DNA from: a virus
Reading direction: 5' to 3' (one strand)
Virus record (IMG/VR): IMGVR_UViG_3300035698_031582
DNA length: 10,497 nucleotides
Of the stretch, positions 2,327 to 2,988 are shown in pieces. The number at the start of each line of letters is the position of its first letter. Within the stretch, counting starts at the first letter, position 1. The translations under genes and the position numbers were made by a program. The notes beneath the pieces are model-generated. The model was given only the letters and a program-made list of their open reading frames with translations. It was not told where the DNA came from and searched no databases.

Positions 2327-2824
2327 ATGCCAAAAGCAAAGAAGGATGATAGAAAAGAGGAAGAGATTATAGTTAATAAAAAAGAGAAGATTAAAATTGT
2401 GGATAAAAAAGAGGTTGAAAAAAACAAACCTATTAGAAAAAAGCGAAAAAAGAAAGTTAAAAAGCAGACTTTTGAAGGTGTGTATGAGATTGACCAAAAA
2501 GGCAACGATGAAACTTTTGGTCCAGTAGAACCACCTAAGGTACATGCTAAAATACAAGAAAAGAAAACTATTACTAAAGAAGAGATGATGGAAGTATGTA
2601 AGAAATTAAGGCAAAATTATGGTAGGTTAGCTTGTGTTGAACGACTGTGTAAGATTTCTAATTCATGTAAATACAGAAGGAAAATAGTTAGTGATTTTAT
2701 GGATGCATCTCAAATTTTGTGTAATAAACATGCATGTAAAATGGAGGATGGGTTTACGACTAATTTTGTTATAAGTATGAGGGATTTTGAAGATATTGAT
2801 TTTGGGAATAAGGAGAACGAATGA
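2327..2824 (+). CDS. hypothetical protein with a Lys/Glu-rich basic N-terminal tail and a 6-Cys C-terminal region (possible Zn-binding or nucleic-acid-binding protein)
   Basis: ATG 2327 preceded by AAGGAGG with a 3-nt gap. The first ~55 aa are highly basic and low complexity (KKDDRKEEEIIVNKKEKIKIVDKKEVEKNKPIRKKRKKKVKKQ). The C-terminus has six Cys (EVC..LAC..RLC..NSC..ILC..HAC). No family recognised. Confidence 0.6.
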   Translation: MPKAKKDDRKEEEIIVNKKEKIKIVDKKEVEKNKPIRKKRKKKVKKQTFEGVYEIDQKGNDETFGPVEPPKVHAKIQEKKTITKEEMMEVCKKLRQNYGRLACVERLCKISNSCKYRRKIVSDFMDASQILCNKHACKMEDGFTTNFVISMRDFEDIDFGNKENE

Positions 2825-2988
2825 AGTCTCTTTTAATTAAGATGGGTGATGAAACACATAAGAAATTTAAAATTAGATGTGTTAGAGAAGGAACTACAAT
2901 GCAACAAAAGATTGTTGAGTTGATGGAATATTATTCGGTAGATAAAATAATATTTAAAACTGAGGGAGAACCGAATGAAGTTGACTAA
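2821..2988 (+). CDS. small ribbon-helix-helix (Arc/CopG/ParG-like) DNA-binding protein, 55 aa; absent from the supplied ORF track
   Basis: Translation MKSLLIKMGDETHKKFKIRCVREGTTMQQKIVELMEYYSVDKIIFKTEGEPNEVD. It has an N-terminal beta-strand (SLLIKM), helix A (DETHKKFKIRCVREG), then a G-T/S turn and helix B (TMQQKIVELMEYY), which is the RHH pattern (compare P22 Arc). ATG 2821-2823 overlaps the upstream stop TGA 2822-2824 (ATGA junction). RBS AAGGAGA at 2810-2816. The 3' end overlaps the next gene by 14 nt. Confidence 0.55.
   Translation: MKSLLIKMGDETHKKFKIRCVREGTTMQQKIVELMEYYSVDKIIFKTEGEPNEVD

Follow-up and report, generated by a model that had tools for sequence, protein, structure and literature searches.

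We show here that a small open reading frame (ORF) at positions 2821-2988 of the window, the whole stretch of 10,497 nucleotides of viral DNA that was analysed, is almost certainly a genuine gene encoding a protein with a ribbon-helix-helix (RHH) fold. The ORF is coding, conserved and syntenic in related contigs, and its product is confidently modelled as an RHH protein; a size cut-off would miss it. On balance, we consider it probable that this protein binds DNA and regulates transcription from promoters of the phage itself, and the likely function thus shifts from possible antitoxin to probable regulator. In itself the gene is an ordinary kind of phage gene and not surprising. Its source, however, is a large, poorly sampled, AT-rich phage, and since the lineage carries unusual cargo, a handle on its regulation would be useful. 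The features on which the argument turns, all on the plus strand, are as follows.

2258-2286, plus strand: σ70-like promoter TTGCAA-N17-TATAAT, in the gap 2245-2326, the only sizeable intergenic gap 5' of the operon of the 165-aa and RHH genes

2267-2294, plus strand: candidate motifs TTAAGATT (2267-2274, in the promoter spacer) and TAGATGTTT (2286-2294, just 3' of the -10), unproven as an operator

2327-2824, plus strand: gene for a 165-aa protein without known family, lysine-rich at the N-terminus, whose conserved C-terminal domain contains four invariant Cys

2811-2815, plus strand: Shine-Dalgarno sequence AGGAG, read directly, 5 nt ahead of the ATG at 2821 and within the 3' end of the 165-aa gene

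2821-2988, plus strand: 55-aa RHH gene; strand at about residues 2-8 (KSLLIKM), helix A 10-23, turn G24-T25-T26, helix B 27-39, disordered tail 40-55

2975-3310, plus strand: gene for a 111-aa protein with homologues in the related contigs L029 and L049, where they do not adjoin the RHH gene

3314-4012, plus strand: gene for a 232-aa protein whose sole detectable homologue, 46% identical, is in L029

The window is a block of 34% GC with densely packed plus-strand genes. The ATG of the small ORF (2821-2823) overlaps the TGA (2822-2824) that closes ORF 2327-2824 in an ATGA junction, and its TAA (2986-2988) lies 14 nt beyond the ATG (2975) of ORF 2975-3310, so that the coordinates and both overlaps given in the preliminary description are exact. 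At this base composition, 55 codons without a stop would occur by chance with p of about 0.005. With the twelve long genes of the window as the codon-usage reference, the ORF scores +18.4 bits in log-odds, against -19 to -89 bits for the five alternative frames, and its per-codon score of 0.335 bits falls inside the spread of 0.20-0.43 of those twelve genes. Homologous small ORFs in related contigs were picked up by gene callers, and the start codon is backed by homologue N-termini (MKTLQIKL, MKTITLRL). Overlapping or abutting junctions are the norm throughout this all-plus-strand block, for example at 6904/6923 and 7520/7532; the overlaps of the 55-aa ORF are thus not special, and they indicate an operon rather than a toxin-antitoxin (TA) module.

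Conservation of the small gene is of the coding type. At the syntenic place in distantly related phage contigs, its homologues are 53% identical in L029, 53% in L032/L049 and 44% in L033, compared with 36-53% for the flanking enzymes, and the small ORF is thus as conserved as the best-conserved enzymes there. Between L032 and L035, which are closer to each other, the RHH gene shows dN 0.11, dS 0.81 and dN/dS 0.14, with changes by codon position of 6/3/17, a pattern that points to purifying selection. The preliminary description had staked the gene on conservation of this kind, and both the low dN/dS and the syntenic homologues in related contigs bear it out. That the ORF is no gene and has arisen by chance in a 150-nt spacer could still be argued from its shortness, from the fact that an identical protein is not on record and from a word-indexed protein search with the single 55-aa peptide, which returned nothing. 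Codon usage, the Shine-Dalgarno sequence, the homologues in several contigs, the dN/dS ratio, the confident fold and a Pfam match above threshold all speak against such an origin, which is effectively refuted by the conservation data already and to which we give next to no credence.

The RHH subfamily is rare: protein sets of 1.8 and 5.8 billion sequences, together with collections of contigs from genomes and metagenomes, gave about 15 members. An exhaustive HMMER scan of 1.84 billion representatives gave eight proteins at E up to 0.001. Six of these eight are true relatives, four of them of 50-57 aa and 43-55% identical to the query and two of them natural tandem fusions of 108 and 123 aa (P0004, P0006); P0001 and P0007 proved to be repeat or low-complexity artefacts and were dropped. 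A profile search added three further relatives, and a degenerate DNA pattern retrieved one Sarcina MAG and seven metagenome contigs. One relative, P0010 (10001-10186 of L030), is what remains of a P0008-like RHH gene truncated at its 5' end, with other sequence in place of the part that codes for the strand; its surroundings resemble a mobile element, and about 1.4 kb without a called gene follow it. The whole window had no match among GenBank phages by megablast, tblastn of the 55-aa peptide against phages and plasmids gave chance-level matches only, and the exact 55-aa and 232-aa products are not on record. In IMG/VR, neither the 232-aa protein nor its alignment nor the RHH alignment picked up a relative, and the 232-aa alignment found none in JGI metagenomes; the 232-aa profile, used to look for homologues, recovered the L029 protein alone. 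The loci L001-L028, reached by way of the RlaP nucleotidyltransferase, are too remote and carry no RHH gene. The phage lineage around the RHH gene is very poorly sampled.

The assignment of the fold, which the preliminary description had read as a strand, a helix, a Gly-Thr turn and a second helix, is reproduced by structure prediction. With a seven-sequence family alignment as input, the AlphaFold2 monomer has an extended segment at residues 1-9, a helix at 10-23, the turn G24-T25-T26 and a helix at 27-39, at a mean pLDDT of 85.4; the tail, residues 40-55, has a low pLDDT of 49-71 and is disordered. The protein is essentially a minimal RHH, a domain of about 40 residues with a short floppy tail. 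K2, H13, K17, T25, M27, Q28 and L34 are invariant in the seven-sequence alignment, and the turn, which is of the G-x-S/T type, aligns with K-G-T-S of ParG. Most of the 50 Foldseek matches listed against the PDB are RHH proteins, ParG first, and they include PutA, Arc, CopG, FitA, MatP, AmrZ, AtaR and ParD; the E-values are weak, as expected for 40 residues. Many of the named matches in BFVD are small viral RHH proteins. For the tandem homologue P0004, the AlphaFold2 model has two beta-alpha-alpha units at a pLDDT of only 52, a confidence too low to show the ribbon, and the natural tandem fusions P0004 and P0006 fit with an obligate dimer.

Profile searches agree on RHH identity, as had been anticipated. 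The 55-aa protein matches Pfam RHH_10 (PF23807) over residues 4-35 at E 2.9e-6, a marginal match of 27.9 bits against a cut-off of 27 in which only the core of the 84-position model is covered. RHH_10 is matched by eight of nine family sequences (best E 2e-8); in the same set ParG matches weakly in five and Omega_Repress weakly in three, the ParG score of the window protein being 19.1 bits, below the cut-off of 21.4. Since RHH_10 is a family without assigned function, membership says nothing about the role. Against the PDB, the family profile finds ParG (1p94) at E 0.0019, with the strand, helix A, the G-T-S/T turn and helix B aligned. A profile relation to Arc and CopG, which had also been envisaged, did not materialise (hhalign probability 1.5%, not significant), and a weak Cas12i match is due to chance.

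Among the neighbours of the RHH gene, conservation is seen upstream, for the 165-aa gene, to which the preliminary description gave no thought, and not downstream. The 165-aa family has a very basic N-terminus and lies immediately 5' of the RHH gene in the window (through the ATGA junction) and, across a 2-nt gap, in L049/L032 and L035, which form a third lineage with the same local gene order. Homologues are of 251 aa in L029 (7360-8115) and of 222 aa in L049/L032 (11402-12070 in L049), share the C-terminal motif FGPV..PK...C..YG..AC...LC.I...C..RR and carry AT-hook-like KKRGRKPK / KKRGRPKG repeats, KKRGRKPK occurring four times in L029 and an RGRP AT-hook in L049. L029, a Logan contig of 17.7 kb, is syntenic with the window, with identities of 36% for the CCA/HD enzyme, 37% for the 165-aa protein, 53% for the RHH protein, 36% for the 111-aa protein, 46% for the 232-aa protein, 48% for a NADAR-SLOG protein, 53% for the RlaP nucleotidyltransferase and 52% for PanD. 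Exactly between its 165-aa and RHH homologues, at 8220-9996, a 61-aa RHH-like ORF and a 541-aa ORF are inserted; the latter has a PHROG transposase match (E 2e-5), the former is unrelated to the RHH family studied here, and the insert probably represents an IS/TnpB-type mobile element with an RHH gene of its own. Downstream, two genes (60 and 80 aa) lie between the RHH gene and the 111-aa homologue in L029 and one (82 aa) in L049/L032/L035, and the 232-aa family is absent from L049. The 165-, 111- and 232-aa proteins have no match in Pfam, NCBIfam, PADLOC, PHROGs or the PDB.

The window protein can be compared with several characterized RHH proteins. Arc and CopG are minimal RHH repressors encoded in the operon that they repress. 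The window protein belongs to the same size class as Arc (phage P22, 53 aa) and CopG (pMV158, 45 aa), with a single RHH domain and little else, and the folds compare at TM 0.58-0.62, but there is no detectable sequence relationship to either. Arc/CopG-type RHH repressors have reportedly been described functionally by Schreiter and Drennan in 2007. The omega repressor of pSM19035 is an RHH protein that binds short direct-repeat arrays in several promoters. Three sequences of the RHH family match Omega_Repress weakly and distant members have tandem promoter repeats of 8-9 bp, whereas the window protein itself lacks a match to the Omega model and the window lacks a repeat array. ParG of plasmid TP228 (1p94) is the best match in both sequence and fold (LLIKMGDETHKKFKIRCVREGTT versus VNVNFDEEKHTRFKAACARKGTS); the window protein differs from it in having no N-terminal tail of about 30 residues, no ParF partner gene and no plasmid context. 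Finally, Aca14 (WP_005725436.1) is a small RHH regulator in operons of phages and mobile elements that acts on repeats overlapping the -10 to repress its own promoter and those next to it (PMC13551039). The window protein is likewise a small phage-operon RHH protein and differs in that no acr gene is recognised near its gene, the sole anti-defence-like neighbour being a NADAR-SLOG fusion 1.5 kb downstream.

The preliminary description had left the choice between an operon repressor and an antitoxin. For the latter, the RHH protein would neutralise a toxin, the 111-aa or the 232-aa protein, as a type II antitoxin and would also repress the operon. A small RHH gene that overlaps the next gene does resemble a TA module, the fold matches include FitA, ParD, AtaR and MazE, and some family members have sub-threshold Pfam matches (FitA-like 0.0027, HicB 0.008, ParD 0.02). 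The tail after helix B, however, comprises just 16 disordered residues, conserved neither in length nor in sequence, and in homologues it varies between next to nothing (P0011, 42 aa) and about 18 residues without a common motif. Furthermore, in two of three related lineages, L029 and L049/L032/L035, small genes intervene between the RHH gene and the 111-aa homologue, the 232-aa family is missing altogether from L049, and overlapping junctions are, as noted, general in the block. The neighbours have no toxin or defence match in Pfam, NCBIfam, PADLOC or the PDB, in line with the earlier remark that neither the 111-aa nor the 232-aa protein looks like a known toxin. With its short disordered tail and variable downstream neighbour, an antitoxin is thus disfavoured and we regard it as improbable, leaving the repressor as the part of the earlier proposal that is plausible but unproven.

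Two further functions can be framed. The RHH and 165-aa proteins might form a two-part DNA-binding unit that organises, replicates or packages phage DNA and is not primarily a promoter repressor, given that in the window, L049/L032 and L035 the RHH gene comes straight after a member of the 165-aa family, that the pair in L029 is split only by the apparent transposase insertion, and that the 165-aa relatives combine AT-hook-like repeats with four invariant Cys. Adjacency in a tightly packed phage operon is nevertheless weak evidence for physical partnership, the insertion in L029 shows that coupling is dispensable, the distant RHH members in L033, L036, L040 and L041 have no 165-aa neighbour, and the 165-aa family matches no known family; we hold such a unit to be unlikely. 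Alternatively, ParG being the closest solved structure by sequence and fold, the protein could be a centromere-binding protein of the ParG/omega type that serves a plasmid-like partition of the phage genome, to which the weak Pfam matches to ParG (five of nine) and Omega_Repress (three of nine) and the tandem direct repeats near distant members, reminiscent of omega/ParG iterons, would also be suited. Yet the ParG score stays below its cut-off, the strand begins at residue 2 and there is thus no flexible N-terminal tail, a ParA/ParF-type ATPase is absent both from the window ORFs and from the neighbourhood of the gene in L029/L049, and no plasmid homologue was found. Partition is therefore highly improbable.

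We thus favour the reading of the RHH protein as a regulator of phage promoters. Its gene would be the second of a long plus-strand operon starting at the 2258-2286 promoter and would be translationally coupled to that of the upstream basic, Cys-rich 165-aa protein. Dimer formation, DNA binding, repression and the targets are inferred. Judged by the fold, the protein would, as other RHH proteins do, dimerise through the N-terminal strand KSLLIKM into a two-stranded ribbon, the ribbon would enter the DNA major groove and the G24-T25-T26 turn would anchor the backbone. Regulation would then be sequence-specific and directed at phage promoters, probably including feedback repression of the protein's own operon, after the manner of Arc, CopG, omega or the RHH-type Aca14. 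This role is suggested by the size and the lack of extra domains, which match Arc and CopG, by the promoters ahead of the operon in the window and L029, and by the precedent of Aca14, a phage-operon RHH regulator that represses several promoters. The promoter repeats at the distant members P0008, P0011 and P0004 argue for it as well, and support comes mainly from the wider family. Weighing against it, no operator is found in the window and in L049 the RHH gene lies deep in the operon, with no intergenic promoter nearby.

Clear repeats within promoters are seen at distant members of the family. P0008 (L033/L034) and P0011 (L036-L039) are first genes behind σ70 promoters with 12/12 and 11/12 matches to consensus, respectively. 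The 18-nt spacers of these promoters (310-339 in L033, 450-479 in L036) are filled by the tandem repeat TTGAATGT-TTGAATG(T/A), a segment that is conserved while the flanks diverge, and at least three TGATGTTTT repeats lie upstream of the tandem-RHH gene P0004 (432-475 in L040). Repeated operator-like subsites at the gene's own promoter are thus present for the members in L033, L036 and L040, in an arrangement that is classical for an autorepressor. Since the DNA-facing strand residues of the window protein differ from those of these members, their operators are not transferable to it. These promoter-embedded repeats are ready-made test cases for operator binding.

In the window itself, the preliminary description had looked to the region upstream of the operon for a promoter with operator repeats. 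The promoter is present at 2258-2286, although promoter-like matches across the window are no commoner than in shuffles, and the homologous place in L029 holds a promoter with 12/12 consensus matches; no significant operator repeat was found at the window promoter. No tandem repeat was detected by TRF at 2200-2400. Inverted repeats near the promoter, including a 9-nt pair (2221-2229/2281-2289) and AT palindromes, are short, AT-rich and at chance level. GATGTTT occurs four times in the window against 3.0 expected and is not enriched, nor is GAWTGTTT. No statistically convincing operator was thus found in the window, where the candidate motifs occur in single copies only. Upstream of the homologue in L045/L047, ATAAATGTG occurs twice; there it encodes a CxxC motif and is not an operator.

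One short sequence does stand out between genes. Of eight copies of TTAAGAT in the window, four fall in the 305 nt of intergenic DNA (2.9% of the sequence), a post hoc observation with a binomial p of about 5e-5. The intergenic copies of TTAAGAT(T), at 2267, 7301, 10259 and 10335, are often followed by (G)GTGTAT, and a variant, TTAGATT, occurs in the L029 promoter (7300) and in a promoter-like region of L049 (4346). TAGATGTT is present in two intergenic regions (p of about 0.005). TTAAGAT(T) and TAGATGTT may belong to the promoters of this phage group or serve a regulator as binding sites, and are not assignable to the RHH protein. In a more ambitious proposal, which seems to us quite doubtful, the RHH protein acts through TTAAGAT(T) as a master regulator of a set of operons; it may do so jointly with the conserved upstream four-cysteine, AT-hook-like protein, the two making up a new two-component regulator. 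A 16-nt sequence, ATGTTAAGATTGGTGT, is identical at 4748-4763, inside the NADAR gene, and at 7298-7313, in the intergenic region before a 71-aa gene, an identity that is borderline for chance.

The rest of the window carries several enzymes and one unusual gene. A CCA-adding/poly(A)-polymerase and HD enzyme occupies 1-2244 and runs off the 5' end. At 4525-5532, a NADAR domain (E 4e-26) is fused to a YpsA/SLOG domain (E 3e-15), with 48% identity in L029; this fusion may act in counter-defence or nucleotide metabolism. An RlaP-family nucleotidyltransferase (5561-6550) and a pyruvoyl aspartate 1-decarboxylase, PanD (6558-6923, E 7e-41), follow. Further downstream, a 577-aa ORF (8523-10256) matches Pfam MVP_shoulder at E 9e-27 and the major-vault-protein repeat at E 9e-8, and overlaps a 403-aa ORF (7520-8731) by 209 nt in a different frame. 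Taken together, the two ORFs (7520-10256) look like a single vault-protein-like gene, more than 900 aa long, that is interrupted by a frameshift, whether this is programmed or an error of sequencing; such a gene is unusual for a phage. By eye, the operon seems to extend to a hairpin and T-run terminator after 10256, which lies behind the vault-like gene in 10257-10497 (hairpin AGAGGTC...GGCCTCT). The terminator is followed by TTGCTT-N17-TAAAAT and then by a new gene, from 10405, that encodes a CxxC-containing peptide.
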